Positions 40,776 through 61,678 of a DNA stretch of 64,000 nucleotides are shown in pieces (positions within the stretch are counted from its first letter, which is position 1; the number at the start of each line of letters is the position of its first letter). The DNA is taken from positions 128,326 to 192,325 of the forward strand of contig CADAIJ010000007.1 in NCBI GenBank assembly GCA_902787955.1. Reading direction: 5' to 3'. The notes beneath the pieces were generated by a model. The model saw nothing but the letters and a program-made list of their open reading frames with translations, was not told the DNA's origin and made no database searches. A program made the translations under genes and the position numbers. The DNA comes from an uncultured Erysipelotrichaceae bacterium. Lineage in GTDB: Bacteria; Bacillota_I; Bacilli_A; RFN20; CAG-826.

Positions 40776-40777
40776 AA

Positions 40778-41683
40778 TTATTCCTCCTCAGGTTGTGCTG
40801 TTTTCGATTGAAGCGATAATTTTTCAAGACTAGAACCAAAAGGTTTTTTCAAAAGCTGTTGTGCGAAAGAACACGCAGAAGTCTTCTTAAATGTATCAAC
40901 TTCTAAATCGGTTCCAAATAATCTTTTGTATGATGACAAAACCGATCTAAACCAAATATGTTTATTACAAATATCATCGAAATCTACGTCATCATCTTGA
41001 ATTTCACTTTTACAAATTGAGAAGCCTTCAGTTAACGCTGGAATAAGCAAAGAATTAAAGAACATTTCTTGATAAGCAGGAATTGCATAAATGATTTTAT
41101 AATTATCAAAATCTTTCTTTGCCATCGTAATAACAATCTTCTTAGAAGAATCGCAATCAACAGAAAACATTCCATCTTCTAGTTTTTCATCGCAAATAAT
41201 GGAGAATATAGATGAGACAACATTGTTTTCTTTTTCTTCGTGACGGGCATGCATGTTAAACCCATCATAAACTGCGACTATATCATATTTTTCAATGCTG
41301 AATTTATAGTCTAAGTAATCATCATCAAACTCGTCAGATGAGAGTATAAAATCTTCTGTTGCATAAGCAAATAATGAGCAATCCAATCTTTCATTAAAAT
41401 CAGATTTATATAAAGTTAATTTTTGAGGTTGCTGAGTAATGACAAATTTTTTTCTAAATACGGTATACGAACATTCAATAATTAATAAGATTTCAATTTT
41501 CTTTTCATCATAAAGCTTTTGGATTGTTTTGCTGTTCGTCACGAAACAAATGTTATCAAAAACAAATCTGTCATCATATTCAATAAAATCGTAGCTAAGA
41601 TCAAAGGTTAAATCTTTGTAATTAGATAATCCTAAATTTTTATTAATAACAGGATACGGAAACAGCTTATTTCTGACTTGCAT
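40778..41683 (-). CDS. hypothetical protein (cassette member)
   Basis: 301 aa, acidic; overlaps the GHKL gene by 17 nt, implying translational coupling. Confidence 0.4.
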   Translation of the reverse strand: MQVRNKLFPYPVINKNLGLSNYKDLTFDLSYDFIEYDDRFVFDNICFVTNSKTIQKLYDEKKIEILLIIECSYTVFRKKFVITQQPQKLTLYKSDFNERLDCSLFAYATEDFILSSDEFDDDYLDYKFSIEKYDIVAVYDGFNMHARHEEKENNVVSSIFSIICDEKLEDGMFSVDCDSSKKIVITMAKKDFDNYKIIYAIPAYQEMFFNSLLIPALTEGFSICKSEIQDDDVDFDDICNKHIWFRSVLSSYKRLFGTDLEVDTFKKTSACSFAQQLLKKPFGSSLEKLSLQSKTAQPEEE

Positions 41684-45421: not shown

Positions 45422-45523
45422 ACTAAATTGAGGCGGACATTTCTTGTCCTCACACCTATATAAATAATACCCATATAATTAAGGCACAGCATTGGAACCC
45501 AGTGTAGTCACCTTGCTGGTGGC
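45422..45523. repeat. copy 2 of the cassette-boundary repeat (5' part of the GC-rich non-coding segment)
   Basis: Aligns base-for-base with 38559..38658 and carries compensatory hairpin substitutions. Confidence 0.65.
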
Positions 45524-45995
45524 TGGGGCCTAGCCTAGTATAAGGAGAAATGTGGGATACTGCATCAATCCGAAGACCAAAGTAGAAATACTTAGGTATC
45601 CGACTAAAAGAGTCGCTTAGGTTAGTGGCGCATTTCGCTTCTATATGTAAGTAGGTAATAGACCAGGCATGACAAGAGGCTCTGCAGAAATGCATCCCAC
45701 GTGCAGATAGTAGGTTTGAGACCCTATTATCTCCGTTCTCAAAGGAAGTGCTTGATTTGACGGGTGGTGACATCCTATAACTGGTCTATTATGCATCAGT
45801 AGGGGAATATCAAGTTGACCTAGTTATGAAGATCATCTTGCTGAAGCTCCCTGAAAGTTGGAGGATACTGGTTCCTCCCTAGGTATCGGTTAGTAATAAC
45901 TCTCATCGGAAGTAACGGGGTCGCTCCCTATTACTCAGCCCGATGCGTTAGTGTACGAACAACATATCGAAGTAAGAGGTGTATGACGAAGGTCG
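45422..45995. ncRNA. candidate large structured non-coding RNA (unclassified; strand unresolved)
   Basis: About 570 bp with clearly higher GC than the surroundings and no credible ORF. Many perfect hairpins, for example GGAGGAtactggtTCCTCC. An interleaved AGTAATA / CATCGG / TATTACT / CCGATG arrangement is pseudoknot-like. Confidence 0.4.
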
Positions 45996-46044
45996 CCAGT
46001 GCTATTTTTATTTAATACTTACTAGAAAAGGAGGGAGTTCCTAT

Positions 46045-46254
46045 ATGAAAAAGACAAAATCAAAGTCTAGTTACACTAACATATGGTTACATAGAAATAA
46101 ACATATGTGGCATGAGTTGGATGGCTTAATTATTCTTGAGGATAGAGAGCACACTCCTAAGATAGTTAGAGATAGAGTAGACGAGATCAATTCGAAGAAA
46201 ATGAAACCGTCAAATAATGACGATATTATGGAATTCCTTAAAGACTTCCTTTAG
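46045..46254 (+). CDS. small basic hypothetical protein (about 70 aa)
   Basis: AAAAGGAGGG RBS 7 nt before the ATG at 46045; a terminator hairpin follows. Confidence 0.45.
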   Translation: MKKTKSKSSYTNIWLHRNKHMWHELDGLIILEDREHTPKIVRDRVDEINSKKMKPSNNDDIMEFLKDFL

Positions 46255-47394: not shown

Positions 47395-48366
47395 TTATTT
47401 GCTGTTTTTCTTAATTAGGTTGTTTAAAGGTGGGTGTCCACTTTCTGTGAGCATTTTATTAGCCGCTACAAGATCCATATGATCGTTGAAAGCGCGCATA
47501 ATAATCTTGTCTTTGCTGATATTTGCATCAAGTTTCTCGTTTATTAATGATAGGAGTTCTTGTGTTTGACGTACATCAAGGCCTAGATTAAAGCAAATGC
47601 CTATGAGGGTATATTTCTTTGGAATCGATCCATTGAGAATATTGTTGAATCCTGTTTGACTAATAACACCTGAGAAACATTGTGCCTTACTAGCGGTCTT
47701 ATCAATCATGTATTTTTTTATTTTTAAAGATAGTTCGTTGGAATCTGGTGCTTTTCTTTGAATATCGTAAATGTTTGAGGTGTACCAGAAAAAACGTTCG
47801 TATTCTCGATCTCTGCTTTCTAGCATTTCCTTGCTTTCTTTTGTAAGGTGGCCACTGACAACATTGTAATTTTCGAAAATATCTTTGTATGTTTTAAACA
47901 TTGATTCGGTGTAAACCATTAAACCGACATTTAGTTCTTCGTGTTTTTCTAAATACTTTGTAATTGCGTTAATCGCTATCTCAATTGCATCTCTTTTAGG
48001 GTATTTATAGGCACCAGTGGATAGAAGTGGAAAAGCGATACTATCTAAATCGAAATCAGTTGCCATTTTTAAACAGGATAGATAAGAAATCATTAAGAGT
48101 CCTTCTTCGTTATGTTTACCATCAATCCACTTAGGATCTGCAACTAAGATAATTCTTTTACAAGGAAGGTTATACGCATTAACAATGATGCATTGGCCAA
48201 TATTGATTGGACTAAATTGTTTTAGTTCTCTGGCAAGTTTATCTCCACCTATTTTCGCTAGTTGTTCGCCCATTGGTCCTTCTAGTTTTAATGAAGGTTG
48301 TGTTGGCACTACAATAGCGTCGTAACGTTGCTCAAAGATATCTCCCTTAACAATACTGAACCCCAT
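47395..48366 (-). CDS. macro-domain protein (divergent MacroD-like N-terminal domain plus a C-terminal extension)
   Basis: SIVKGDIFEQRYDAIVVP...GEQLAKIGG parallels the macro-domain start VKGDIT...DAIVNAAN...GGGV. Confidence 0.5.
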   Translation of the reverse strand: MGFSIVKGDIFEQRYDAIVVPTQPSLKLEGPMGEQLAKIGGDKLARELKQFSPINIGQCIIVNAYNLPCKRIILVADPKWIDGKHNEEGLLMISYLSCLKMATDFDLDSIAFPLLSTGAYKYPKRDAIEIAINAITKYLEKHEELNVGLMVYTESMFKTYKDIFENYNVVSGHLTKESKEMLESRDREYERFFWYTSNIYDIQRKAPDSNELSLKIKKYMIDKTASKAQCFSGVISQTGFNNILNGSIPKKYTLIGICFNLGLDVRQTQELLSLINEKLDANISKDKIIMRAFNDHMDLVAANKMLTESGHPPLNNLIKKNSK

Positions 48367-48461
48367 AATAAATCCCTCCTTTATGCTATATAGCGATTTT
48401 TATGTCGACACCGCTATTATAACATTTAAGAAGGGATAAACCAAATCTACTCCTAGATTTT

Positions 48462-50081
48462 TTAAAATCTAGCATAGAGGATTTCGCGGATTTTTGTAAA
48501 ACACTCGTCTAAGATAGGCATTAGTTCTTGAATAGTAAGATTATGTTTCTTCTCCATTTCTTTTAATGAAAAATTATCTAATCTATATTCTTTTAAATAT
48601 ATAAGCTTATCTCCGAAGTATTCTTCTTCATTAGGAGTAAGACTATTAATAAATTCAATAATCTTCTTTCTATCAGAGATAACTAGTTGCCAGATGTAGG
48701 TATAAATATCATCAAAAGTAAGAGTGATATCTTGATCATATTGGTTGATGACTATGCCTTCATATCTAGGATCGTTTTTAATGACTCTAACTAAATCATT
48801 AAATGGGAATACTGCGTTAGATAGCATCTCAGATTCATCCGGAAGATAGAATGGATCAGTATAAAGCGCTAAATAGACTTTATTATCTCTTCTAATCTTT
48901 TGGATTCTAGTTATTTCTTTTCCTAATCCAGTTAAAACATCTTTCTTAGTTAAGATAGAAATATTATCGTAATCCACCTCTAAAGTAGTCATTGAACATA
49001 TAAACATATTGGAGTTCTTAAGCATATTTGCTAATTCTCCAGTCATTCTAGTGTGTTCTTTTTTACCTTTAAATTTAACTAGTTCCTCCACTAGATCATC
49101 TTGCCCTAGAGTAGCGTTACTATCATAGGAGGTTTCCATAAAGACTTCTTTAAATTCACTAAGGATAGTAACCAAATCATCATCAGGAACTTTTAGACAT
49201 AAATCATTTAGTTCTTTTATTCTTTTAACTGTTAGTATGTCTCTAAATCCATGTGGACTTTTAACAATAAGATGATTTCCAGGTTTAATAGAATCTTTAA
49301 GATAAGAAGGAATACCTTTAGCTAAATAGGTGTTTGTGCCAAAATCTCCTAGATAAATATATGGTGTTTTATGTTTCTCATGTTCATAAAAGTCTTCTTC
49401 ATATTGTTCGAAGTAATCCATTGCTTCTCCTATTTCAAAGATAAACGGGTTAATGAGATTTAATCTATCTAGATGATCTTCCTTAAGTTCTTCATAGGTA
49501 TCTAATGGGAATGGGTAGACGACTGCATCATCTTTAGTACCATCATTAAACGCGACCAATATGTTAGGATTTCCGTTTTCATCATGTTGATTAACTAAAG
49601 AAACGCAGTTGATATGGTCAACGTTTATACCTTTTTCTTCTTTAATCATCTCTGGAAATGCTATCCAAATCATTTCTAAGAGTAAAGTAACTAAACGATA
49701 ATCAAGATTATTATCATAGGAATTTATAATTGTGGATACGGTCGGGAAACATGTAGCGCCGATTATGTTGATAGAGTCTATCTCTTTAGCCCACTCTTCT
49801 CTAATTAATGGGTTTTCCACTAAAGATTCTTTATCTTCTAAGACATTTCCATAACAATCAGCGAACACCATAAACTTCTTTTCCATATCGTGATATAAGA
49901 AAGGATAATGGTGAGTAAAAGTTTTATGGCAATGTGGGCATGTTACATGAAATAATGAAGTATCTAATAGTTTTTCTTTAAGTTCAGGGTCTAAAGTGAC
50001 ATTGATACTATCATAGATAACACAAGGAATCTTCTTATTGCATTTAGGACATTTAAAACTATAAATATGGGATTTAGACAC
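48462..50081 (-). CDS. hypothetical protein with an N-terminal double CxxC zinc ribbon
   Basis: CPKCNKK...VTCPHCHKTF; 539 aa. Confidence 0.4.
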   Translation of the reverse strand: MSKSHIYSFKCPKCNKKIPCVIYDSINVTLDPELKEKLLDTSLFHVTCPHCHKTFTHHYPFLYHDMEKKFMVFADCYGNVLEDKESLVENPLIREEWAKEIDSINIIGATCFPTVSTIINSYDNNLDYRLVTLLLEMIWIAFPEMIKEEKGINVDHINCVSLVNQHDENGNPNILVAFNDGTKDDAVVYPFPLDTYEELKEDHLDRLNLINPFIFEIGEAMDYFEQYEEDFYEHEKHKTPYIYLGDFGTNTYLAKGIPSYLKDSIKPGNHLIVKSPHGFRDILTVKRIKELNDLCLKVPDDDLVTILSEFKEVFMETSYDSNATLGQDDLVEELVKFKGKKEHTRMTGELANMLKNSNMFICSMTTLEVDYDNISILTKKDVLTGLGKEITRIQKIRRDNKVYLALYTDPFYLPDESEMLSNAVFPFNDLVRVIKNDPRYEGIVINQYDQDITLTFDDIYTYIWQLVISDRKKIIEFINSLTPNEEEYFGDKLIYLKEYRLDNFSLKEMEKKHNLTIQELMPILDECFTKIREILYARF

Positions 50082-50866
50082 TAAAAACCACCATACCTTT
50101 CCTTGAATTCATTAATAACACCTCTCATCTCTAAAGGAAGAGTGTTAATAACGTCATTAACTAAACTAGCAGGAATTACTTTATAGTAGGCTTCTGCAAC
50201 CGCACAAGAAATTGCCGCGGTTGTGTCACAGTCTCCTCCAATTGAAATTGTGGTTCTTAAACAATCTTCAAAGGAAGTAGAAATAAAGAAACAATATAAG
50301 GCTTCTGGAACGGTTAGTTGACATATTTCAGGACCATGAACATATGTGCTCCTAAGTTCTTCATAATCGAAGTCTAAATCATAGAACTTGGAAGCAAAAT
50401 CCTTGAGTTGCTCTTTATTTTTTCCATTTCTAGCCATACGAATGAGTTCACTTGTAACATAAGCACCCTTCATTCCTTCTTTATGGTTATGAGTAACTTT
50501 AGTAAAGGTATCACTTAATTCCTTAACTACATTAGGATCATCGCTTACCCATCCTACTGGGGATATACGCATTGCGCTACCATTGCCGCAGGAATTATAT
50601 GGTTTTGGGTTAGCCATATACATCCAGCTTGAAAATGAACCACCATAACCGGCATTAGGATATTCTTGAGCCAATTTTTGTAAATATTTAGCCGCAGAAA
50701 CCTCGTCTTTTATTTCTGCATGAAGTAACCAATCCATACAGGCGATAGTTAAAACGGTGTCATCGGTGTATGTTGAATTTTTAGTAACTAAGGTGAATTC
50801 TTTAGTTTTAATGTTATTGAATTCGAAACGTGAACCCACTACATCTCCAATAATCGCTCCTATCAT
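50081..50866 (-). CDS. ADP-ribosylglycohydrolase (ARH/DraG family)
   Basis: MIGAIIGDVVGSRFEF and YTDDTVLTIA correspond to ARH metal-binding motifs. Confidence 0.65.
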   Translation of the reverse strand: MIGAIIGDVVGSRFEFNNIKTKEFTLVTKNSTYTDDTVLTIACMDWLLHAEIKDEVSAAKYLQKLAQEYPNAGYGGSFSSWMYMANPKPYNSCGNGSAMRISPVGWVSDDPNVVKELSDTFTKVTHNHKEGMKGAYVTSELIRMARNGKNKEQLKDFASKFYDLDFDYEELRSTYVHGPEICQLTVPEALYCFFISTSFEDCLRTTISIGGDCDTTAAISCAVAEAYYKVIPASLVNDVINTLPLEMRGVINEFKERYGGF

Positions 50867-52095
50867 TATTCATTCCCCTCCTTTTCTTTCATTTTTTGGT
50901 CCATATATTCTTTGAATTTCTCCGCAAGAGATGGACTATTTGCGGTTAATCTTTTAATTTCAAGGTTTGGAATTTGGTTAACTGCTCTACCCAAATGAGT
51001 AACAGTCTTTTTAAATTCGTCTTTGAAATTCTGGACTTTCTTAATAATGTCTTCGCACATCTTATCGACCTGGTCATAAATCTTACCCGCGTTAGAGTAA
51101 TCAGTATTGATCTTATCTACGACTGTTCTAACCGCTGTTTCAAAGTTAGCGATATCAACATTTTCTTTTTTATATCTATCGATTTCTTTTCTATAGCTTA
51201 AGGTATTTCTCGCCATTGAACGGATTAAGCCGATGATAGTGAGGAAGTATTGAGGTCTAACCACAAACATCTTTGGATAACGATGTGACACATCAACGAT
51301 ACCTTTATTATATAAAGTGCTATCGCTTTCTAAGGTAGAGACTAAAACTGCATACTCACATCCTTTGGATGTTCTATTTTTATCAAGCTTACTAAAGAAG
51401 TGTTCGTTTTTATGCTTATCTTTAGTGGTGTCTTTTTCTGTCTTCATTTCAAACATGATGGAGACAGTTTCAATACCATCGATATAGTCGCGGAAAATGA
51501 AGTCACCTTTTCCTTCTTCGTCCACTTTATTATCTTTTTCAAAGTAGGAATCTGGGTAAGCAGTCATTCTTACTTCGTTAAAAGCATCCTGACAGTATTT
51601 CTCTAAGGACTCACCTAAGTCTTTAGTGGAATCGCCCATTCTAAATTCCTTCCAAAGCTTAATCTCGTTATCTTTAGCTTCGAGTTGGAATTCGTATTGC
51701 TCTTTAAGCTTTTGGGTGGATAACACTAATTCCTTTTCATTATTAGCGATTTGGCCTTTAAGCTTAGTGATCTCTTCGTTCTTCTTAGAGATAGTCTCTT
51801 TATAAGTGTCTAAAGCAGAATTGACGGCAATTGTTGTGTCTTTTTCGGAGTTAGCTAACTTCTCTTCTAAGACTTTAATCTTGTTGTTAAGTTCCGCGTT
51901 TAAAACTTCTTGGGCCGCTTTTAGTTTATTGGCTTCGATTTCGTTTTTAGCTTTATAAACTTTTTCGAGGTCAGTTACCTTATCTTTAACTCGACGTTCG
52001 ATTTCTTCGGTTTCGATATCTTGAAGGAGAGAATTATATTCATCCTTCCCGATTTCGATAATTTCTTTACATTTAGGACATGTGATTCTTAACAT
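50866..52095 (-). CDS. coiled-coil protein with an N-terminal zinc ribbon (DUF2130-like)
   Basis: MLRITCPKCKEI..., a long coiled coil, then an alpha/beta C-terminal domain. Confidence 0.4.
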   Translation of the reverse strand: MLRITCPKCKEIIEIGKDEYNSLLQDIETEEIERRVKDKVTDLEKVYKAKNEIEANKLKAAQEVLNAELNNKIKVLEEKLANSEKDTTIAVNSALDTYKETISKKNEEITKLKGQIANNEKELVLSTQKLKEQYEFQLEAKDNEIKLWKEFRMGDSTKDLGESLEKYCQDAFNEVRMTAYPDSYFEKDNKVDEEGKGDFIFRDYIDGIETVSIMFEMKTEKDTTKDKHKNEHFFSKLDKNRTSKGCEYAVLVSTLESDSTLYNKGIVDVSHRYPKMFVVRPQYFLTIIGLIRSMARNTLSYRKEIDRYKKENVDIANFETAVRTVVDKINTDYSNAGKIYDQVDKMCEDIIKKVQNFKDEFKKTVTHLGRAVNQIPNLEIKRLTANSPSLAEKFKEYMDQKMKEKEGNE

Positions 52096-52098
52096 ATA

Positions 52099-52677
52099 TT
52101 ATTTATTCTCCTTTCCTAATTCGTATTTTAATGTAATGACATAGTCATTATGATAATTAGATAAACCCGCGACAGTCACTAAACACTTCTTATATGAGTA
52201 GCGTTTAGCTTTATGCATTAAATCGAAGAGTGTTCCTTCCATATTGCAGTTAATGCAACTAAATGTCTTATTAGTGATACTTATAGCAACAGAGTGATTG
52301 TCCTTACAAAATGGACAATTAACATATAGGAAGTCGCCTTTTTTAGTTACATTTTTAAATAAGAAGTCCACTACTTTAATGGTGTCAGCATGCTTTAAGA
52401 CATCTTTCTCTGCTCTTTTAAATACTCTACGTGCCTTGCGCATTTCCTTACGTCTAATACGAGTAGCTTTTTCCTCCTCGGCAGCAGCTACATCAATGTC
52501 GTACTCAAGATACTTAGCGCATTTAAGTAAGTCTTCGAGAGCTAATCTATCATCGTAGAACTCTTCGAGACAGTTAAGCATGGTGACTTCTAGCACGTCT
52601 TCGCGTGTTAAATTAGATTCGGACAATTGATAATCAATTAAGTCCTCGATGTGTTGTTGAATTTCGTTTTTAGTCAT
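52099..52677 (-). CDS. zinc-finger hypothetical protein
   Basis: CPFCKDNH...CINCNMEG; basic central region. Confidence 0.4.
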   Translation of the reverse strand: MTKNEIQQHIEDLIDYQLSESNLTREDVLEVTMLNCLEEFYDDRLALEDLLKCAKYLEYDIDVAAAEEEKATRIRRKEMRKARRVFKRAEKDVLKHADTIKVVDFLFKNVTKKGDFLYVNCPFCKDNHSVAISITNKTFSCINCNMEGTLFDLMHKAKRYSYKKCLVTVAGLSNYHNDYVITLKYELGKENK

Positions 52678-52679
52678 GC

Positions 52680-53601
52680 TTATTTTCCTCCATTCTTTTG
52701 ACGATCAATTTCATCTAATACTTCTTTTTTAGGTTCGTAACCCATCGCTAAGGTGAGGACTTCGAGGTCATTACGACACATTTCGTCATCTAAGTAGGAT
52801 TTAAAGAATCCATCAAGGATGATGGCGTCAATTTCTTCGTCATCCTTGTTTTTATACTTGTTATGTAATTGTTCTCTTAGTTTTTTTAAGAACGCTCTTA
52901 TTTCTTGTTCGTTCATACTATTTATTTCCTCCTTTTAATTCTTCTAACCATTCAGGCCTTTTAATTGTTTCCATAAGGACATCAATAAGGTCAGTGACTA
53001 AGTCGTTATAATCACGAGCCATAAAGGTGTCGATAATAACACCACCTGGAAACTTACCGGTGTTGATGTCAATAGCCTCTTTTTCAAAGGCTTTAAGTTT
53101 CTTTAATAAGTGTTCGCGCTTACTAAGTAGTTGTTGATTAGTGTTGTTTTTTACGCTTGCCATATATTTTTCTCCTTTACTTAAATAACACTGACATAAT
53201 GTCTAGATGGTCTTTTTCTCACTACTGAACTTAAATCATCCATCCAGCGAATGATAACCATGTAATCGTGGGAACTAATTTCTCCTGAGTTATAGCCATT
53301 ACGGAATCTCTCCATAAGTGTGTGATTAGTGATGCCGCGCTTATTGGCATCTTTTACTAATTGATTGAACTTATCTTTGTTCATACACTACTACCTCCTT
53401 TTCTAAGTAATTCTCGTAGTCCTTATCCTGTAAGAGGCTACTCAACTTGAGCTCCTCTTTTTTACGGAGATAGGCGATTACTTTCTTATTCCTATTAGTG
53501 AACTTGATGTCACTGATTTTGCTTGAATATATCTTGCTATTCATTTTTATTTCCTCCTTGTTAGCTAAGTTTTTCATCTCGGTTTTCTCTCGAGCCAACA
53601 A
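52680..53601 (-). other. array of four tiny ORFs (78, 81, 67 and 76 aa), tightly packed
   Basis: Contiguous or overlapping stops and starts: 52680-52916, 52918-53163, 53181-53384, 53371-53601. Resembles a phage or anti-defense early-gene array. Confidence 0.35.
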
Positions 53602-54099
53602 TAGGTTAAAATAGAATATGAATTTCAGATAATTCGTGACTTGTCGTAAAAAATAGTCCTATACTTTGTATAGGACTTTCTTGTAATTTCTCAATTAAGG
53701 ATTGTAGTCCCATAACTTAGGTATAATTCAATAACCACCTTTATTATGGGGAATGAAGATTAGGATTTGGTCAATCCGGAAATGACAAATATAAAATATG
53801 AGGAAAATGGTCAATTGTTCCCCCACACTTATTTTCACCCACTATATTTATATAGTATTTGCCCTTTTTAGCACTAAAGAGGCTCGGGGAGGGCCAAATA
53901 TCTAGATAAGGATATTTAAATCCTAACTATATATTTCGTGGCCCTACGAGCCTCTTTTTATAAATCTATATTTCTTAGTAATCCTAAATAATATTATTAA
54001 TATTTTTAATATTGTTGTTCCACTCTTAACATTTGCTTAACATATAGGTGAAATAAGAAGTCGTTGTGTTTCGTTTCATTCCTCACTTTCTTTAGAAAA

Positions 54100-54133
54100 G
54101 GATACCCTTATCGCTTGGGGTATCCTTTTCCTT
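54100..54133 (-). terminator. intrinsic terminator
   Basis: GGATACCC-ttatcgctt-GGGGTATCC hairpin with an A tract on one side and a T tract on the other, just downstream of the minus-strand gene ending at 54158. Confidence 0.55.
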
Positions 54134-54157
54134 ATCTTTATTAATGCCTTTGTTTCT

Positions 54158-54511
54158 TTAGTCTTTAAACCTTAATAGAACCCCACCTGGTCTATCTTTC
54201 TCTTTAGATTTTTCTTTAACTAATGAGTTATATAAGTTAGTGTTCCTCTTCTTAATAAGTTCATCATAATACTCTAATAATTCTTCAACATATAATGGCT
54301 TTCTAACTCCAGCGCAGTAACACGCCATAGAGGTGACACCTAGTTGGAAGACAGTGTAATCATCTAAATCCACGGCAATACCTATTACTTTATCTTTAAG
54401 ATTATAAACATCATCTAACTTATGATAGATCTTATATCCATCTTCTTTACTTAATCTATTAATAAGTGTGTTAATCCCATCATAGGATTTATAAGTTAAG
54501 ATATACTGCAT
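54158..54511 (-). CDS. hypothetical protein (117 aa)
   Basis: Last gene of the operon. Confidence 0.4.
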   Translation of the reverse strand: MQYILTYKSYDGINTLINRLSKEDGYKIYHKLDDVYNLKDKVIGIAVDLDDYTVFQLGVTSMACYCAGVRKPLYVEELLEYYDELIKKRNTNLYNSLVKEKSKEKDRPGGVLLRFKD

Positions 54512-54525
54512 ATTAATATTATTAT

Positions 54526-55299
54526 TTAATCTCTTTCTTTAAATTCTCTTACTTGTTTATAGCCCTCTAACATATATTTCGCTAAAGTATGTGGCTCTAC
54601 TCCCCCAGTTAAACCTCCAAAGGCAGGGATAACGATAGAATGGATGTTAGCTTTAAGCGCCATAATAAGAGTGCTTCTCATCGAATTATAGATAACTAGA
54701 GGGTCTTTAATAATAGAAGGTGTTCTCATCGTTGGAGTGTGTATTAACTTCTTATCTGTATTAGGGATATCCACGAGAATTGAAGTTCCTACAGGTTGTT
54801 CACCAAAATAATTTTGTTTAATGAAGTTCTGGACTCTTTTTTGTAAAGTATCTCCAAAGTATCTAGTAATCGCTAAGTCGTAGCCTCCATTCATGATTCC
54901 AAATGAATTAGCAGGACTTACAATACATTCAACATTTTTATGTGTGTCCATAAAGTGTTTAAAGTCATCTAAGACTACTTCTACTTCTTTATAGCTAGAG
55001 AAAGCTTTTTTAAATTCAGAGATGATTTTAGGGTTAATATCAAGAAGATAGATTTTAAGGTTATTAAGATTAGAATAAACTTTCACAATATGGCCTTTAT
55101 TATAGAAAGGTTCAGAACTTACTAAGTCTAAAGAGATAAGTTCGTTAAAGATAGAATCCGCTAAAGGGAAAGAAATAGAGAATGTTCTTTGTAAGGTTGA
55201 GATAGAAACGTATTTCGTATCTTTAAGCCATTCTTTAATCACATCCATTAAGCCTTCGTTATAGGCTTTAGTTAGTAAGTCTTTGTTATTATTCATCAT
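54526..55299 (-). CDS. FtsK-gamma-like winged-helix + macro-domain protein
   Basis: YVSISTLQRTFSISFPLADSIFNEL resembles the FtsK gamma wHTH. ECIVSPANSFGIMNGGYDLAI and AFGGLTGG are macro-domain signatures. Confidence 0.5.
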   Translation of the reverse strand: MMNNNKDLLTKAYNEGLMDVIKEWLKDTKYVSISTLQRTFSISFPLADSIFNELISLDLVSSEPFYNKGHIVKVYSNLNNLKIYLLDINPKIISEFKKAFSSYKEVEVVLDDFKHFMDTHKNVECIVSPANSFGIMNGGYDLAITRYFGDTLQKRVQNFIKQNYFGEQPVGTSILVDIPNTDKKLIHTPTMRTPSIIKDPLVIYNSMRSTLIMALKANIHSIVIPAFGGLTGGVEPHTLAKYMLEGYKQVREFKERD

Positions 55300-56021
55300 T
55301 ATTTCTTTTGATACTCCTCTCTTAGTTTCATAAGTAAGATCCCTAGATTATTCTTTCCTTTTCCTTTAGATACTCCCCAGAAAGTATCATTCCAATCATT
55401 ACCTTCGATTAATATTCTATCTTTGGTATTTATTAGTTTCTCTTTTAAGTCAGGATATGTATTAAATTTAATTCTTAATATATCCTCCATGATATTAACT
55501 TTAATGTCTTCCCAATCACTTCTTAAAGTTACTTTTCTTCCTAATCTTTTTGCACTTGTAGGAGATAGATTTTTAAATTCTTCACTCCTACTTAAATCTT
55601 TTTGAGCTTGGAAGGCTGCTTCATTATTTAAGTAAGTAATCCCGTTATAAGTAATACTAGCGTTATAGAAATTACTTAAGAAATCATATTCTCCCCTAAA
55701 GGAAGTTATCGCGTCTTTAAGTTTTATTCTTTCTAATTCTATTTCTTCTAGTTTCTTTCTTTTAGTTTCTTCTTCAAGTTTAGCTAATCTAATACTTTCT
55801 TTATTTTCAAATTCTAAATAGTCTTCCATTAACTTATTTAGTTTTTCTTCTTTAAATCTAAGGTATCCACTTCGATAGGCGAGATATAAGCTATATTTCT
55901 TATCATTAGATAGACTAATAATTATTTCTTTAATCTCACTAGATTCATTGGTGGCTTTAATTAAATATGTCTCCCCTACTTTATTAATTACTTCCTTATT
56001 TAAAAGTGTCTTATTATCCAT
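55299..56021 (-). CDS. NADAR (YbiA-like, DUF1768) domain protein with an N-terminal coiled-coil extension
   Basis: YDFLSNFYNASITYNGITYLNNEAAFQAQKD...SDWEDIKVNIMEDILRIKF...GNDWNDTFWG matches the NADAR consensus closely. Confidence 0.7.
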   Translation of the reverse strand: MDNKTLLNKEVINKVGETYLIKATNESSEIKEIIISLSNDKKYSLYLAYRSGYLRFKEEKLNKLMEDYLEFENKESIRLAKLEEETKRKKLEEIELERIKLKDAITSFRGEYDFLSNFYNASITYNGITYLNNEAAFQAQKDLSRSEEFKNLSPTSAKRLGRKVTLRSDWEDIKVNIMEDILRIKFNTYPDLKEKLINTKDRILIEGNDWNDTFWGVSKGKGKNNLGILLMKLREEYQKK

Positions 56022-56109
56022 TATTCATCCTTCTTTCTTGGCTCATATTATGGAGGGGGTTAATGAAAAAATGTAAAGACTTGACTTAATTTAACTACTG
56101 TTAAGAATC

Positions 56110-56784
56110 TTATTTATTTTTAAACTTATGATAGATAGTTAGAGGTTTAATTCTATTTACTACTTCATATGGGGATTCTTTAAGAGAGAGGGAATCACTA
56201 TTAAAGATAGCAACTTCATTATAGTAACCTTTTTGTTTTTCTTTCTTAGTAGGTAAGATACGACGCGAATAGTTAATTTTAGATATAGGATCTTCTTTTA
56301 AAGTTACTTTTAGGTTTCTAGTTAATTTATTAGGATCTTCTTTTCCTTTAAATAACTCGTAGAAGATATTACCTGTATTAGATTGAAGAAGTGTTTCATT
56401 ATTATATCTAGATACTTTAATTAGATAGGAGAGTTTAATGTTTGGATTATCTCCTATTACTATATCCACCCCTTTCCTTGTAGGACATTTATTATGATGA
56501 AGATAGAAATGGAAAGGGGATGATTTATCTCCTCTTTGTTCATCCTTACCTTCATGAATAAAGGAGTCTATATAGTGGATTTTATTATTTTGATCTTTTT
56601 CATGTAGATCTTCAAAGTAAGCCTCTACAAAGAGGGGTTTAAGTTCTTCATCATTATCAAAACAAATAATAGAGTTAAGTAGATACTCCCCTATCTTTTG
56701 AATAAGACTAGTTATCTCTTCCGTAGATTTATTAGGAGAGATCTCATGATATAAAGATAGGATTTTATTTTCGATATTATTCAT
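56110..56784 (-). CDS. hypothetical protein
   Basis: 224 aa; first gene of the NADAR operon. Confidence 0.4.
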   Translation of the reverse strand: MNNIENKILSLYHEISPNKSTEEITSLIQKIGEYLLNSIICFDNDEELKPLFVEAYFEDLHEKDQNNKIHYIDSFIHEGKDEQRGDKSSPFHFYLHHNKCPTRKGVDIVIGDNPNIKLSYLIKVSRYNNETLLQSNTGNIFYELFKGKEDPNKLTRNLKVTLKEDPISKINYSRRILPTKKEKQKGYYNEVAIFNSDSLSLKESPYEVVNRIKPLTIYHKFKNK

Positions 56785-56834
56785 AACTATTAATCATTAT
56801 AGCGGTTCTAATCTAATTTATCAGTTTAGATAAA

Positions 56835-56875
56835 GAAAAAGACCGCAGAACCCAAGTGTTTTGGGAGTGCGGTCT
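56835..56875 (-). terminator. intrinsic terminator after the macro gene
   Basis: AGACCGCA...TGCGGTCT hairpin followed on the minus strand by TTTTTCTTTAT. Confidence 0.55.
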
Positions 56876-56923
56876 ATCTCGCTCTGTTGCGCTTAAATAA
56901 TAATATTAAACGATCGGGTGATG

Positions 56924-57601
56924 CTAGAACAAAGATAATTGCTTATTAAATTCAATATTTCCATCATAATAAAGTCTAAATATCGACTTATATGTTTCCG
57001 CTCCAATATCTTTAATTTTTGATATATCAACAAATCTAACAATTTTACTTTGTTCATTTTCTAATGAAGTAATTTGCTTTTTTGTTAATCTGACATATTT
57101 TTTAAGTTCATCAATCGGCGTTTCTTTGAAAGAGTTAATCATTTCAAGTTCTTTCCCTTCAACCAATTTAGATCGACAAATATAAACATCAATATCAAGG
57201 TTTGAAAGGTATTTAATCATTACTTTCTCAACTTCCTCTGGATTTAAGCCGCCATTAGAAGCACCAAGCAATGGAAAAGCAACAGAGTTAAATCCCCACT
57301 GTTTATAGTTTTCGGTGAAATACTTTAAGCCTTCTTCAATCCACTCCATTTGAGATGGGTATTTAAAATGGAACTTAGTTGGAAAGTTTATTATCTTTTG
57401 TCCATCAATTTCATAAAAATATACTTTTCCGGTATGGATTAAGTTATTATGACACTCTTCAATATATTGTTCGTTTAATTTTGGATAGCGTAAAGCAAAT
57501 TCAAGTGCAAGGCCTTTCCCCATTAAGCCAACACAGTTAATCGTATTAACAATGCATTCAGCTTTTGTATTAAAAACAGTTGAATCAGTAATTATCATCA
57601 T
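56924..57601 (-). CDS. macro-domain protein of the TARG1/DarG type (candidate antitoxin or reversal enzyme)
   Basis: AECIVNTINCVGLMGKGLALEF and AFPLLGASNGGL match the DarG/TARG1 macro clade. Overlaps the DarT-like gene by 17 nt. Confidence 0.6.
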   Translation of the reverse strand: MMIITDSTVFNTKAECIVNTINCVGLMGKGLALEFALRYPKLNEQYIEECHNNLIHTGKVYFYEIDGQKIINFPTKFHFKYPSQMEWIEEGLKYFTENYKQWGFNSVAFPLLGASNGGLNPEEVEKVMIKYLSNLDIDVYICRSKLVEGKELEMINSFKETPIDELKKYVRLTKKQITSLENEQSKIVRFVDISKIKDIGAETYKSIFRLYYDGNIEFNKQLSLF

Positions 57602-58544
57602 TTTTATGCCAAAATAATTCCCAGCGAACTTCGCATTTTCTCCTAATTTGTTCTCTTTTATTATAAGGCAAACAATTGATAAAGTTATCTAATTCGTCTT
57701 CCGATTCGAAATAAATATGCTTAATAATTTCCGCACTAACTTTGTTGTGGAACAAGATTTCAGCAGCTAAATATGGATTATCCTCATAAGCATCATAAGC
57801 ATCGTAAGTTTTTGCAAAATTAAAGTTAAATCGATTTAGATTTTTAAGGTTTCCTTGATATCCAATGTTAAATCTTCCCCAGTAAAAATCACCATCATAC
57901 ATAAAATGTCCATTTACCGGATAAAGAATTACATTGGTACCTGACTTCCAAATTGAATCATAATCGAGAGCGATTATAACTCCATAAGTATTGTTTTTGA
58001 TAAAATTGTGATACATCGAGCATGTGGCTTTATTTCTTATGTTTAGATAAAATCTTGCATATCGTTGCAATATTGGTGAGTAATTTGATCCCATAACAGA
58101 ATTAGATGTTTCGTTCATTTTATCATTATCATATTTGATTAAAATACCTCCATAATATCTAGAATACAAATACCCTGTGGAAATAATTGAGACAGCGTTT
58201 TGAACTGCTGTAAAATGATAAAACTCAACAGGACCGTCGCTATGTCGTTGCAACATATTGTAAAGTTCGTCATAAGATGTGGCTAAACTCTCAAAACGAA
58301 GACCGGTTTCTTTAGTCTCACATACATATGGTTTTGCAATCACACTTCTTTCTTCAATATTTTTATATATAACGCCTTCAATTTTATCTTCGTTTGTCCA
58401 AAAATCGCGCATTTCGCCATCTGTGAATACTGCTTTGTGTTCATCTTTAATTGATAGAATTGTCTTCCTCTCACCGTTTTTAAAAACAACGATATCGCCT
58501 TTTCTCAAATCTTTATATGAATTATATTTTTGAATTTTTTCCAT
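57585..58544 (-). CDS. DarT-like (DUF4433) ADP-ribosyltransferase with an N-terminal extension of about 100 aa
   Basis: FYHFTAVQNAVSIISTGYLYSR parallels LYHFTHIDNLPSILxxGLLSR. C-terminal AAEILFHNKVSAEIIKHIYF parallels the AEfLV...IP...I motif that carries the catalytic Glu. Confidence 0.55.
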   Translation of the reverse strand: MEKIQKYNSYKDLRKGDIVVFKNGERKTILSIKDEHKAVFTDGEMRDFWTNEDKIEGVIYKNIEERSVIAKPYVCETKETGLRFESLATSYDELYNMLQRHSDGPVEFYHFTAVQNAVSIISTGYLYSRYYGGILIKYDNDKMNETSNSVMGSNYSPILQRYARFYLNIRNKATCSMYHNFIKNNTYGVIIALDYDSIWKSGTNVILYPVNGHFMYDGDFYWGRFNIGYQGNLKNLNRFNFNFAKTYDAYDAYEDNPYLAAEILFHNKVSAEIIKHIYFESEDELDNFINCLPYNKREQIRRKCEVRWELFWHKNDDNY

Positions 58545-58568: not shown

Positions 58569-59570
58569 TTATGCCTCTCCTGGCTTTTTACCATTAAATA
58601 ATTCTTCATCTAAATGGTTAATTAACATTTGATAAAAATTCTTAAATCTTTCAGGAACATACAAGTTCTCCCTTTTTATGTTTTTTAGTAATCTTTTTGC
58701 TTCTTTGTGATCTCTTTCTACACCATCGATATCGGAAGCAAAGCATAATGCAGAAATAATACGGCATAAAGGATTTGCAGTCCTCATAGTTCCCGCTACC
58801 GCAATAAAGAATCCTTTGTTATTAATATTAAGACTGCCTGTCTTTTCATACTCTTCTTGAAGAAATAATAATGAAAAAATGGCATAGGAATCGCCGTTAA
58901 ATCTCTCATACAAACAATTAATAACATCTTCATAATCGCTTTCGTAAGCAGCGTTAAATAATCTAACATTCAACCCGTTGTTTGAATAAAGAGCACCGCC
59001 ATATTCATTAAATATTTTTAAATAATGAAACTCTGTATTATCTTTAAAAAATTCTTTATAAGGTGGAAATAGATTATTTAGCGTTTTATATGATTGTGAA
59101 AGTATATAAGCGACTTGGCCCTTTCTATTATTGGGAGCGTATTCAAAAGCAAGATTTAAATATTTCGATGCTTTTAGATAATCAACCATATCTGGCTCTA
59201 AATTGTTAAAAATATGTAAGTTGGCTAATTCCAAACATGCTGAATAACTATGTTTATTAATCCCTTCTTCAAGAACTTTCACTGCTTGATAAACTTTCGC
59301 TAGATTACCTACAGTTATTTTCACATAAAGATTATAGGCATCATATCCTTCCTCAATCGCTTTTAATGCGTATTCTTGCGCTTCTTTATACCTTCTTAAA
59401 CGGCATAATGCTAGAGCAATAAAATAGTATAATGATTTATCCTCTTTGATTTTTAAAGCATCATTAAAACAATTAATTGCAATTTCTTCTTCACTAGTTT
59501 CTTTGTCAGTACCAAAAAGATTAACTAATCCTAAAACTTTTTTCTTATCAAAATCACTCAAATAAAACAT
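58569..59570 (-). CDS. helical-repeat (TPR/Sel1-like) protein
   Basis: Repeated amphipathic helices rich in Ala, Tyr and Leu; 333 aa. Confidence 0.35.
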   Translation of the reverse strand: MFYLSDFDKKKVLGLVNLFGTDKETSEEEIAINCFNDALKIKEDKSLYYFIALALCRLRRYKEAQEYALKAIEEGYDAYNLYVKITVGNLAKVYQAVKVLEEGINKHSYSACLELANLHIFNNLEPDMVDYLKASKYLNLAFEYAPNNRKGQVAYILSQSYKTLNNLFPPYKEFFKDNTEFHYLKIFNEYGGALYSNNGLNVRLFNAAYESDYEDVINCLYERFNGDSYAIFSLLFLQEEYEKTGSLNINNKGFFIAVAGTMRTANPLCRIISALCFASDIDGVERDHKEAKRLLKNIKRENLYVPERFKNFYQMLINHLDEELFNGKKPGEA

Positions 59571-59909: not shown

Positions 59910-60260
59910 AATTCCTCTTTCTTCCTCCTTAAATACTAATAAGAACTGGCCCGGAAGTTCTTTTTTTTAGAAAGGAGGTTATGCATAAAACTGGAAAAGA
60001 TTTTAGTTACACCAAGCCGGGCCTCTTGAATGTAACTAAATATTAACCAAAAAATAAATTATTAATAGTCTTGTAATTCATAGAAGATATGGCAAAATCG
60101 TAACCCACGACTCTTCTATCTGAATCTATTCTTACTGAATATATTCTGTATCTCTGAATATCTTATCCTATTATCCTTCTCTTCTTATTCTTTATCTTTC
60201 TTCTCTACTCCCTTTTTTAAAATTTTTTGAAAATTATTTATAAATTCGCTCAAATATAAA

Positions 60261-60288
60261 ACGCCCCAGCATAAACTGAGGCGTTAAT
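60261..60288 (-). terminator. intrinsic terminator after the AAA-protease gene
   Basis: AACGCCTCAG...CTGGGGCGTT hairpin followed on the minus strand by TTTTATATTT. Confidence 0.5.
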
Positions 60289-60310: not shown

Positions 60311-61678
60311 TTAGGCGCTTACGTGCTCGTTATTATTAAACCTATTTAGTATTTCTTCAACTTCTCGCTTAGAGAGTTTTTCTTTCTCTTTAAGTTCGTT
60401 ATATAACGTTTTAGCAAGGTTCATATTCGATTGTATTAAAGCTTTAGCATTTTCAAACGCTTCGTTTAGTAATTCTGTTTCAAGTCTTTCTGTTACTTCA
60501 AGTCTCTTTTCAGAGGTTGGAGTAGTATCTGCAGCAAAACCACCACTTGCTCTATTAGGTGGAAGTTTATCAAACCCAAAAGCACCAACATTCATAAGAT
60601 GAGATATGGCCGTTCTAGCTTTATTGACATCATCAACTGCTCCAGTAGTCATGTCACTACACATAACTTCTTCACCAGCAAGACCACCAAGCATTGTAAT
60701 TAGTTTCTTCTTAAGAGTGTTTTTACTTACTCGTTCAAATTCAATTGTTTCTTCTTCAAACAAGATATGGCCTGTTATTCTTCCAAACTTTTCAGTAGAG
60801 ATTGATGTCACAATACCACTTGTTTTATATTCTGCAATGAAATGGCCAATTTCATGATAACAAGTTAAATCATCTGGGCCATATTTATTTCTCTTTCTAA
60901 TATCTTGAAATCTTACAACAGGAATATTCCTTTCGAAGTCAATAAGTGTAATCTTATTAATTCCTTGGGATGTGCAGTCAATAATTGTCTCGTTTACGAG
61001 TGTCTTTATGTCCGCTCCACAGAAATTAGGAGTCTTAAGAGCAAGTTGATGAGCATCTATATCATTAAGTAATTCGTTCTTACTTAAATAGAGTTTAAAT
61101 ATTTCTTCTCTATCGATGGTGTCTGGCATATCAATAGTGATACGTTTATCCATTCTTCCACTTCTCATTAAAGATGGCGGAAGAATTGGGCGGTGATTTG
61201 TTGTAGCAATAACTAAAATACCATCGCTAGAAGAAATGCCATCAATCTCAGTTAAAAGAATCTTTGTTGTTTTTCTTGAGTAATCAGAAGTAAAGTCATT
61301 TGTCATAACTAATTCATCAAGTTCATCAATAAAGATAATAGCAGGAGGATTTTCTCTCGCTTTCTTGAACAATTCTTTAATGGATTTAATAGTAGCGGCT
61401 TCGGTTTCGCTTTCATTACTTTCGTATTCAAAGAATGGAACCCCACTTTCAGAAGCAATAGCTTTAGCAAGCATGGTTTTACCTACGCCAGGATTGCCAG
61501 ATAAGATTAAACCTTTAGGTATATACGCACCCTTCTTCTCGTACTTCTCGTGGTTTTTAAGAACCTCGATAATCTTCTTAGCCTCGGCTTTTTCTTCTTC
61601 ATAGCCAGCGATGTCACTTAAATAAATTTTGTCTTCCATATCTAATATTCCTTTCATTAAAAATTTGTAAAAAACCAT
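60311..61678 (-). CDS. soluble FtsH-like AAA+ ATPase fused to an M41 zinc metalloprotease (no transmembrane N-terminus)
   Basis: Walker A GNPGVGKTMLAKAIA, Walker B IIFIDELDEL, second-region-of-homology-like ATTNHRPILPPSLMRSGRMD, zinc-binding HEIGH. Confidence 0.7.
   Translation of the reverse strand: MVFYKFLMKGILDMEDKIYLSDIAGYEEEKAEAKKIIEVLKNHEKYEKKGAYIPKGLILSGNPGVGKTMLAKAIASESGVPFFEYESNESETEAATIKSIKELFKKARENPPAIIFIDELDELVMTNDFTSDYSRKTTKILLTEIDGISSSDGILVIATTNHRPILPPSLMRSGRMDKRITIDMPDTIDREEIFKLYLSKNELLNDIDAHQLALKTPNFCGADIKTLVNETIIDCTSQGINKITLIDFERNIPVVRFQDIRKRNKYGPDDLTCYHEIGHFIAEYKTSGIVTSISTEKFGRITGHILFEEETIEFERVSKNTLKKKLITMLGGLAGEEVMCSDMTTGAVDDVNKARTAISHLMNVGAFGFDKLPPNRASGGFAADTTPTSEKRLEVTERLETELLNEAFENAKALIQSNMNLAKTLYNELKEKEKLSKREVEEILNRFNNNEHVSA

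Follow-up and report, generated by a model that had tools for sequence, protein, structure and literature searches.

Research on ADP-ribosylation of DNA and RNA, in the contexts of phage defence and of competition between bacteria, is advancing rapidly. Among the described systems are DarTG1 and DarTG2, whose chemistry has been worked out (PMC11543638): DarT2 ADP-ribosylates thymidine in single-stranded DNA and a macrodomain reverses the modification, and NADAR proteins reverse ADP-ribosylation of guanine as DarG-type macrodomains reverse that of thymine (PMC11543638). Orphan NADAR proteins protect against DarT1 (PMC11825919), phage AdfN and a chimallivirus DarG2-like protein neutralise DarT (PMC11825919, PMC13309987), and hydrolases have been proposed to act as a shield against ADP-ribosyltransferase (ART) toxins (PMC11833690). 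NADAR is also found with partners other than DarT, as in YarT-YbiA (PMC11125620) and in the validated phosphoribosyltransferase (PRTase)-NADAR defence DS-32 (bioRxiv 10.1101/2025.01.08.631726). In the literature searched, ADP-ribosylated DNA is described as being dealt with by direct reversal, by nucleotide excision repair or by recombination (PMC7003065), and no dedicated glycosylase for such lesions was found. Here we analysed a 64,000-nucleotide stretch of contig CADAIJ010000007.1 from an uncultured Erysipelotrichaceae bacterium (hereafter the window), in which six ADP-ribose genes lie within 11 kb. The results suggested that this block is probably a mosaic of three independently mobile ADP-ribose cassettes, sitting side by side in a hypervariable chromosomal defence island; cassette A resembles DarTG2, and cassettes B and C appear to be equipped for the removal of ADP-ribose only.

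Six ADP-ribose genes and their three cassettes

Domain calls were made as Pfam scores against curated cut-offs, with further models from PADLOC, NCBIfam and PDB sequences. As shown in Table 1, all six ADP-ribose genes lie on the minus strand and scored above their curated hidden Markov model (HMM) thresholds. They are found among about 21 consecutive genes, and about 65 further open reading frames (ORFs) of the window gave no ADP-ribose-related Pfam match. A genome usually carries a few ADP-ribose genes, and six among about 21 consecutive genes is far above this number. The concentration is real.

An earlier interpretation made from the bare letters (the sequence-only reading) had listed these ORFs; each exists at the coordinates given there, and all are on the minus strand. 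Its calls of macrodomains, NADAR, ADP-ribosylglycohydrolase (ARH) and DarT were all borne out by the HMM annotation, and the guanine and thymine chemistry that it quoted for NADAR and DarG-type macrodomains agrees with the literature (PMC11543638). Its count of three to four macrodomains settled at three. The macrodomain that it labelled TARG1-type is indeed a macrodomain, specifically of the DarG type, and the DarT that it placed in the block is present, with most of its gene beyond the end at position 57601 that had been given for the block. Comparative genomics, which it had proposed, indicated that the block is strain-variable and not part of the core genome. With pairwise identities of no more than 23%, the three macrodomains are not recent duplicates, and each is of a different clade. 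Overlaps occur within each group of genes, and gaps of 139 nt and 556 nt separate the groups. Based on comparison with related contigs, the block splits into cassettes A, B and C, which occur apart from one another.

Cassette A consists of a Sel1/TPR-like gene, a darT gene 24 nt downstream of it, and a short darG gene, directly downstream, that overlaps darT by 17 nt. An overlapping downstream gene for a DarG-type macrodomain is also the arrangement of DarTG2 (PMC11543638, PMC7003065). The window macrodomain has clear relatives among solved DarG structures (5m3i, E = 1.9e-26; 5m31, E = 1e-25), scores 164.5 bits with the PADLOC DarG model, and keeps the 'FPTK' lysine (K76). From the motif alone, K76 would be the equivalent of K80, the catalytic lysine of Thermus aquaticus DarG (PMC11543638). 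Three features set cassette A apart from DarTG2. Firstly, the window DarG is only 225 aa long, with an 80-aa tail in place of the canonical C-terminal half, and it matched the NCBIfam antitoxin_DarG model at 152.9 bits, below the 250-bit cut-off, over model positions 7-169 of 338 only; the same short form is kept in five other loci. Secondly, the window DarT has 108 extra residues at its N-terminus, and its sequence has diverged so far that phmmer against PDB matched no solved DarT; with the PADLOC DarT model it scored 22.8 bits. Its stretches 'YHFT' (aa 109) and 'AAEILF' (aa 260) may correspond to the NAD-binding histidine and catalytic glutamate motifs of DarT. Thirdly, the Sel1/TPR gene is a conserved third gene.

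Homologues of the window DarT were collected by a word-based search of 5.8 billion sequences, which returned 13. Twelve of them cover 92-98% of the query at 44-54% identity and carry PF14487, and the thirteenth is a shorter sequence of 244 aa with no Pfam match. Five other loci were fetched. In each of them a 225-aa macro protein, 70-73% identical to the window DarG, comes after DarT, and a Sel1-like protein of about 320-350 aa is encoded next to the pair, either upstream or downstream. The Sel1-like neighbour in locus L182 is 26% identical to the window Sel1/TPR protein over 256 aa (E = 8e-8) and is clearly homologous to those of L178 and L180. The five neighbourhoods are mutually unrelated, one being housekeeping and one defence-like with SLFN-type helicases, NERD and MazG. 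No match to the window NADAR, AAG-fold (see below), ARH or other macro proteins was found in them, and the only gene beyond cassette A that they have in common with the window is a DUF2130 homologue in L182. Because DarT-DarG-Sel1 recurs in five loci without the other hydrolases, cassette A was regarded as a separate unit. By sequence comparison, it appears to be a three-gene variant of DarTG2 toxin-antitoxin defence, in which the conserved third partner of the clade is the Sel1/TPR protein. Across the clade (L178-L182), identity to the window differs from gene to gene: 70-73% for the antitoxin, 44-50% for the toxin, and at most about 26% for the Sel1 partner.

Cassette B contains, in order, the genes for a 224-aa protein, a NADAR protein, a macrodomain protein with a probable winged helix-turn-helix (wHTH), and a 117-aa protein. 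In blastn, its DNA matched contig L177 at 94.9% over 3,073 bp and contig L176 at 95.9% over 2,397 bp, and nothing else was shared nearby. The flanks are wholly different from those in the window: upstream of the cassette, L177 has helix-turn-helix (HTH) proteins and an 813-aa beta-propeller protein, and on the downstream side lie DUF2971, T5orf172, a restriction-modification (R-M) system of type I and an MrcB_N/NOV_C (McrB-like) protein. In L177, the contig for which the upstream flank was fetched, no DarTG was found next to the cassette. Because 95% identical DNA sits in different flanks and, in L177, without DarTG, cassette B was regarded as a separate unit; it appears to be a self-contained transcription unit and has no transferase. 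L177 also shares with the source contig a 432-aa island gene beyond the window (92% DNA identity), and looks like an island of the same type that carries other cargo. The two ends of the cassette have a promoter-like site and a strong terminator-like hairpin (Table 1); promoter-like sites are not enriched in the region (54 found versus 74 expected), so the strongest site and the hairpins were counted as weak support.

The NADAR protein matched YbiA in PDB (2b3w, E = 8.5e-20 over aa 102-236; 8bau, E = 8e-6), with the 'FQAQK' and 'WG...GxNxLGxxLM' stretches of 2b3w aligned. It passes the threshold for the NADAR superfamily (PF08719) and scored 73.5 bits against the 73.7-bit cut-off of TIGR02464, the riboflavin-intermediate N-glycosidase model. 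The N-terminal part of the 257-aa macro protein is a probable wHTH, for which there is a sub-threshold FtsK_gamma match only (23.3 bits; cut-off 30.6), and the best PDB match of the protein is yeast YMR087W (1njr, E = 1e-4), an Appr-1''-phosphatase. The protein is 94-96% identical in L091, L176 and L177, and a scan of GTDB genomes with it gave three loci, where the macro domain alone was matched. The 117-aa protein is 96-97% identical in L176 and L177, where it directly follows the macro gene. In L091, the 224-aa gene is directly followed by the wHTH-macro gene (94% identical); the NADAR gene is missing and the cassette is otherwise collinear. In L090, a NADAR protein (58% identical over its full length) and a homologue of the 224-aa protein (65% identical) are again close neighbours, in the vicinity of a macro protein, SIMPL, CpXC and an AAA-trypsin fusion.

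Cassette B thus resembles the orphan NADAR and DarG-like hydrolases in having NADAR and a macrodomain without a cognate transferase in the operon, and resembles YarT-YbiA and DS-32 in having NADAR operonic with a partner other than DarT. It differs from the orphan hydrolases in being chromosomal and located in a defence island, not in a phage, in joining NADAR to a probable DNA-binding macrodomain, and in that NADAR is dispensable for its architecture, as it is absent in L091. It differs from YarT-YbiA and DS-32 in that the partner of NADAR is a predicted AAG-fold protein instead of an ART or a PRTase. Nor does it correspond to DarTG1, in which NADAR is operonic with DarT1, since the gene directly upstream of NADAR here encodes the AAG-fold protein and not an ART, and the DarT nearby has a macrodomain as its partner.

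Cassette C starts after the 556-nt gap with four small ORFs (52680-53601), followed by the CHC2, DUF2130, ARH, CpXC/SseB and MacroD-like genes. The distances are -14 to 17 nt up to the CpXC/SseB gene and 95 nt before the MacroD-like gene, and the cassette is a third, translationally coupled operon. The ARH protein matched ARH3 (E = 2e-12) and DraG (E = 2e-9) in PDB. Its acidic motifs 'YTDDT' (aa 33) and 'GGDCDT' (aa 210) align with the corresponding motifs of ARH3; such acidic motifs bind metal ions. The protein scores above the PF03747 cut-off and below the DraG and Tri1 equivalog cut-offs (64.7 bits versus 337, and 29 versus 490). The MacroD-like protein matched YmdB (1spv, E = 2.7e-18), with the second loop 'STGAYKYP' kept in the alignment, and scored below the cut-off of all NCBIfam equivalogs. 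Its fold assignment is sound, and its activity is uncertain. In the DUF2130 protein, 'GDFIFRD...MFEMK' was read by eye as a possible PD-(D/E)xK nuclease motif. In L182, the gene after DUF2130 encodes a 318-aa protein with a PD-(D/E)xK-like 'IFIEDK' motif, also read by eye, to which the 'D...EMK' of the window DUF2130 is similar.

Table 1 Features of the ADP-ribose block and of its surroundings in the window. Pfam cut-offs are given in brackets.
Feature	Position	Strand	Assignment and remarks
Sel1/TPR-like protein, 333 aa (cassette A, gene 1)	58569-59570	minus	Pfam: weak TPR matches only
DarT-family protein, 319 aa (cassette A, gene 2)	57585-58544	minus	Pfam DarT 38.9 bits (22.5); ART domain aa 109-303 after a 108-aa N-terminal extension
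Short DarG antitoxin, 225 aa (cassette A, gene 3)	56924-57601	minus	Pfam Macro 47.7 bits (22); DarG-type macrodomain aa 1-145 and 80-aa tail
Cassette B DNA unit, 3.07 kb	53793-56863	minus	Shared with L177; right-hand 2.4 kb also in L176
Promoter-like site, CTGATA-17-TATAAT	56796-56824	minus	10/12 consensus matches; just upstream of cassette B gene 1
Predicted AAG-fold protein, 224 aa (cassette B, gene 1)	56110-56784	minus	Without family annotation
NADAR protein, 240 aa (cassette B, gene 2)	55299-56021	minus	Pfam NADAR 90.0 bits (35.1); YbiA-like domain aa 111-236 after an N-terminal extension of about 100 aa
Macrodomain protein with probable wHTH, 257 aa (cassette B, gene 3)	54526-55299	minus	Pfam Macro 48.0 bits (22), Macro_2 33.2 bits (27); start overlaps NADAR stop by 1 nt
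117-aa protein (cassette B, gene 4)	54158-54511	minus	No Pfam match
Terminator-like palindromic hairpin	54095-54130		14-bp stem; 28 nt downstream of the 117-aa gene, inside the shared DNA
DnaG-type CHC2 zinc finger protein, 192 aa (cassette C)	52099-52677	minus	Pfam Zn_ribbon_DnaG 30 bits
DUF2130 protein, 409 aa (cassette C)	50866-52095	minus	Pfam DUF2130 207.9 bits
ARH, 261 aa (cassette C)	50081-50866	minus	Pfam ADP_ribosyl_GH 114.7 bits (26.2); 1-nt overlap with both neighbouring genes
CpXC zinc ribbon with weak SseB-like C-terminal region, 539 aa (cassette C)	48462-50081	minus	CpXC 75.4 bits; SseB 18.3 bits, below cut-off
MacroD/YmdB-like protein (cassette C)	47395-48366	minus	Pfam Macro 79.4 bits (22); macrodomain aa 1-165 and 155-aa C-terminal region
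Soluble AAA+ ATPase fused to M41 (FtsH-type) peptidase	60311-61678	minus	Pfam AAA 112 bits, Peptidase_M41 62 bits
Terminator-like hairpin	60260-60285		After the AAA-M41 gene
ROOL RNA, full length	45474-46014	plus	RF03087 186.8 bits (gathering score 99.1)
PDC-M33 A	41667-43610	minus	412 bits
PDC-M33 B	40778-41683	minus	166 bits
PDC-M33 C	40035-40775	minus	128 bits; Pfam DUF6339
Dam-like D12 methyltransferase fused to DUF7226	38714-40027	minus	DUF7226 resembles a type II restriction enzyme C-terminus
Type II methyltransferase	37070-38059	minus	370 bits
Type IIG R-M enzyme, 1337 aa	33069-37082	minus	ResIII and Eco57I
SAM riboswitch	31911-32006	minus	Just upstream of small ORF 31460-31924 (111 aa on the source contig), below the last island gene 32284-33066
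c-di-GMP-I riboswitch	22492-22569	minus	Upstream of the GGDEF gene 20944-22425

The 224-aa protein and its wider family

The most unusual gene of the block, absent from the sequence-only reading, is the one between DarG and NADAR. Its 224-aa product gave no match in Pfam (including PF02245), PADLOC or PHROG and one insignificant match in NCBIfam. Five close homologues were found by the word-based search of 5.8 billion sequences, and an exhaustive HMMER search of 1.84 billion representatives gave 41 related proteins. A first structure model, made with the five close homologues, was unusable (predicted local distance difference test, pLDDT, 46.6). The alignment was deepened with the 41 distant representatives, and with it AlphaFold2 gave a model with a pLDDT of 93 and a predicted template modelling score (pTM) of 0.91. 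According to this model, the protein has the fold of the alkyladenine DNA glycosylase AAG/MPG. A hidden ART toxin, by analogy with YarT-YbiA, had been considered for this protein and was rejected, as the confident model shows an AAG and not an ART fold.

In the 44-member alignment of the family, E54 and Y56 are invariant and A55 is near-invariant, forming an E-A-Y motif, and D73, S119 and L121 are also invariant. By strand order in the model, the motif would correspond to E125-A-Y127 in the 'VETEAY' strand of AAG, whose sequence and residue numbering were checked against PDB. The 224-aa protein differs from AAG/MPG (PF02245; PDB 1ewn, 1f6o) in having an extra N-terminal helical pair and in lacking significant sequence similarity: the 44-member profile found no AAG among PDB sequences, and hhalign against the single AAG sequence was not significant. 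The partners of its gene differ as well, being ADP-ribose hydrolases here and, in a distant branch of the family, a PAD-type deiminase and a phosphatase-like protein.

The distant branch was examined in 80 human-gut metagenome loci (L093-L172), which form 14 clusters at 90% identity. Its conserved operon begins with a Sel1 gene, which is followed in order by the AAG-fold gene, the gene of a PAD_porph-type deiminase and that of a CPCC zinc-ribbon protein with a weak match to dual-specificity phosphatases (for example, L125 5370-8163). The deiminase gene lies directly downstream of the AAG-fold gene in 60 of 78 loci, with overlapping start and stop codons. An AAA-M41 protease gene is found near the AAG-fold gene in 37-39 of the 80 loci, and sometimes a reverse transcriptase or a WYL regulator. 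No description of this operon was found in the literature searched, and a pattern scan of IMG/VR gave no relatives of the distant branch. The recurring theme is the pairing of an AAG-fold protein with an enzyme that takes off or modifies a chemical group.

Island setting, phage relatives and alternative explanations

The window has a GC content of about 32%. From position 1 to about 30 kb it looks mostly like ordinary chromosomal DNA, with genes for polysaccharide biosynthesis, an ECF transporter, TruA, YebC, a GGDEF protein, CotH and an aminotransferase. From about 32 kb to past the window end, every gene is on the minus strand and most are unannotated; the site of the SAM riboswitch probably marks the right-hand edge of this island. 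The three PDC-M33 genes form a complete candidate defence system (40035-43610), and the island also has a DEDDh exonuclease and many small ORFs. On the other side of the block, the AAA-M41 fusion scored 95 bits as IetA-like in PADLOC and resembles IetA/IetS with ATPase and protease fused. Its homologues lie near the AAG-fold gene in 39 of the 80 metagenome loci and also occur in L087, and the AAA-trypsin fusion of L090 is similarly placed. Because of the R-M, methyltransferase, PDC-M33 and IetA-like neighbours, and because the cargo differs in L177, the surroundings are regarded as a strain-variable chromosomal defence island.

The ROOL RNA is on the strand opposite to the surrounding genes and overlaps two probably spurious ORFs, 45456-45773 (minus) and 45979-46254 (plus). 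The ROOL class comprises large RNAs of unknown function that frequently lie close to tRNAs and, in many but not all cases, in prophages (PMC5737381); they assemble into homo-oligomeric complexes (PMC12286853). A search of the window gave no tRNA. The source contig continues beyond the window with about 7.5 kb more of the same kind, encoding proteins of 432, 330, 739 (with HTH), 240 and 940 aa. The ORF at 62779-63990 (minus) runs on beyond the window and is the C-terminal part of the 940-aa protein, which has no Pfam match. In eight contigs of IMG/VR, L009 among them, about 6.5 kb separates the NADAR gene from the gene of a protein that is 33% identical to about 372 aa of it. A search with the flanking 149-aa gene for an island-free site gave the same island and a 1.5-kb contig with different upstream genes, which was not decisive.

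Relatives of the block genes were also found in phages. At least 80 viral contigs of IMG/VR encode NADAR relatives, with about 50-58% identity across the domain. The end of a prophage (L082) carries a tail gene, a SLOG-like protein, a macro protein, SIMPL, an ARH-DUF6508 fusion and two serine recombinases; its ARH is 55% identical to that of the window, and its macro protein is 27% identical to the MacroD-like protein over the full length of the latter. Phage contig L084 (8433-10795), which also has a major capsid gene close by, encodes a 502-aa protein whose C-terminal part is an ADPrib_exo_Tox/ART domain. Its gene lies directly upstream of that for an ARH 43% identical to the window ARH, and the two look like a phage-borne transferase-hydrolase pair. 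In Lachnospiraceae bacterium MA2020 (L087), a macro protein (57% identical), an ARH (41%) and an AAA-M41 protein (28%) lie in one region together with thymidine kinase, WYL and DnaA-like genes. These relatives in phage contigs and in L087 indicate that the genes are shared between phages and host islands, as in Iyer et al. (PMC9503650). The phage clusters of that study (Macro, NADAR, SLOG, Nudix, ARG; Iyer et al. 2022, PMC9503650) resemble the block in bringing several unrelated ADP-ribose-processing domains together, and the L082 cluster (SLOG-like, Macro, SIMPL, ARH), with its homologues of two window genes, is of the same kind. They differ from the window cluster, which is part of an island on the chromosome that also contains R-M systems and a DarT toxin; glycosylase, Sel1, SIMPL or FtsH partners are not mentioned in that study.

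Such relatives raise the possibility that the block serves a mobile element as a counter-defence arsenal. The element would be a degraded prophage or satellite, or else an integrative element of which the block is in the leading region, and the orphan hydrolases would shield its DNA from DarTG-type and other ADP-ribosylating defences of new hosts. The sequence-only reading had offered this as one of two explanations. The viral NADAR homologues and the ARH relatives of L082 and L084 are in line with it, as are the proven anti-DarTG activity of phage orphan NADARs and DarG-like proteins (PMC11825919, PMC13309987), the ROOL RNA, a class often borne by prophages (PMC5737381), and the many small ORFs, the CHC2 zinc finger and the DEDDh exonuclease of the island. 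However, no integrase, capsid, tail, terminase, relaxase, type IV secretion or conjugation gene was found in the approximately 40 kb of island seen; none of the ten island proteins without an informative Pfam match had a match in PHROG; and megablast of 47-60 kb against plasmid and phage collections gave no match. The DUF2130, CpXC/SseB and MacroD-like proteins, like the distant AAG-fold branch, have no relatives in IMG/VR by pattern scan. The neighbours of the block are R-M systems and PDC-M33, in L177 cassette B stands beside a type I R-M system and an McrB-like gene, and a DarT toxin of its own suggests defence or addiction behaviour, not anti-defence alone. What remains of the proposal is weak, namely the phage relatives of NADAR, ARH and, distantly, the MacroD-like protein, and we consider it unlikely.

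The other explanation offered was a multi-layer DNA ADP-ribosylation conflict system, taken here as one integrated system with DarT as the effector and with DarG, NADAR, wHTH-macro, ARH and the MacroD-like protein as co-evolved layers of antitoxin or regulation that jointly act on DNA ADP-ribosylation. In its favour, 11 kb of a single strand hold all the genes, closely packed, a cassette C-type DUF2130 homologue directly follows DarG in L182, and Macro, NADAR and related domains co-occur above chance in DNA viruses (PMC9503650). The conflict setting and the strain-variable genes stood up to the analysis, but a single system of six genes did not, as the cassettes recur apart: five loci have DarT-DarG-Sel1 without the other hydrolases, and L177, the contig with its upstream flank fetched, has cassette B without DarTG. 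The units are also separated by the 139-nt and 556-nt gaps, the promoter-like site and the terminator-like hairpin, and the three macrodomains are of different clades at no more than 23% identity. Largely refuted by these comparisons, one integrated system is quite improbable. Least credible, to the point that we give it hardly any weight, are ordinary housekeeping neighbours for NAD and ADP-ribose (tRNA-splicing by-products, YbiA-type repair of riboflavin intermediates, O-acetyl-ADP-ribose turnover), for although the NADAR protein is YbiA-like and falls just under the TIGR02464 cut-off, YMR087W is the best PDB relative of the wHTH-macro and the MacroD-like protein is similar to YmdB, the island around the genes is strain-variable and holds defence systems, a DarT toxin is encoded next to them, cassette B travels in one piece between flanks that are unrelated, the word-based search of 5.8 billion sequences retrieved few close relatives (five for the AAG-fold protein, 13-14 for DarT), and no housekeeping equivalog model reaches its cut-off.

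Several observations weigh against a mosaic of independent cassettes in a defence island, or against the roles proposed for them below. The DUF2130 homologue of L182 (9800-11089, 59% identical) stands directly after DarG and hints at a link between cassettes A and C that lies outside a picture of independent modules; by this arrangement, DUF2130 proteins may be linked to the DarTG cassette. The left end of the island is beyond the window, near the contig end, and a distant integrase could lie there. Cassette B has no recognisable toxin, sensor or effector, and a defence role for it is read from its neighbours only. The link of the 224-aa protein to AAG is at the level of the fold only, the match of E54 and Y56 being a reading of motif and secondary structure, and HHalign against a profile of 18 vertebrate AAG sequences (shallow, at least 61% identity) gave a probability of 0.6%, which is not significant. 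The larger, distant branch has the PAD_porph deiminase and the phosphatase-like protein as partners and no ADP-ribose hydrolase, therefore the AAG-fold family is not intrinsically tied to ADP-ribose. In the MacroD-like protein, the first loop reads 'VPTQ...LEGPMG' where YmdB (1spv) has 'NAAN...GGGVDG'; the first loop of YmdB-type macrodomains is catalytic.

Proposed roles and significance

If the block is a mosaic of three cassettes, each would have a role of its own. In cassette A, by analogy with DarTG2, DarT would ADP-ribosylate thymidine in single-stranded DNA and block replication during phage infection, the DarG macrodomain would strip the mark in uninfected cells, and the Sel1 partner may regulate or sense. 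Cassette B would clear ADP-ribose adducts from nucleic acid: NADAR would act on guanine-linked ADP-ribose and the putative DNA-binding macrodomain on another linkage, and, as the least certain step, the AAG-fold protein might flip out or excise modified bases that are beyond hydrolytic repair. Its likely role would be protection against foreign ADP-ribosylating toxins of phages or competitors; alternatively, it may itself be an anti-phage module. In cassette C, ARH probably reverses ADP-ribosylation of protein side chains. These substrates, and the roles of cassettes B and C, are those that we infer from the domains and their relatives.

A more far-reaching proposal, which we put forward tentatively and hold to be rather doubtful, is that cassette B represents an undescribed system, in which AAG-fold N-glycosidases of a new family would join NADAR and a DNA-binding macrodomain in acting on nucleic acid that carries ADP-ribose. 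A base-excision route would thereby be added to direct reversal, and the system would confer immunity against foreign toxins that ADP-ribosylate DNA or act against phages. The wider family, with its PAD-type deiminase and phosphatase-like partners in human-gut bacteria, would then be a modular toolkit by which modified bases are removed or processed.

The block also calls for caution in annotation. Clusters of genes with the same theme in defence islands can be mosaics of independent cassettes, which matters for systems called by co-localisation alone. The three-gene DarTG variant could show how DarT is restrained and released without the canonical C-terminal domain of DarG. Cassette B links NADAR and a macrodomain to a predicted AAG-fold protein without a transferase. 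If it is true that this protein excises ADP-ribosylated bases, it would represent a new repair route and a new glycosylase family.

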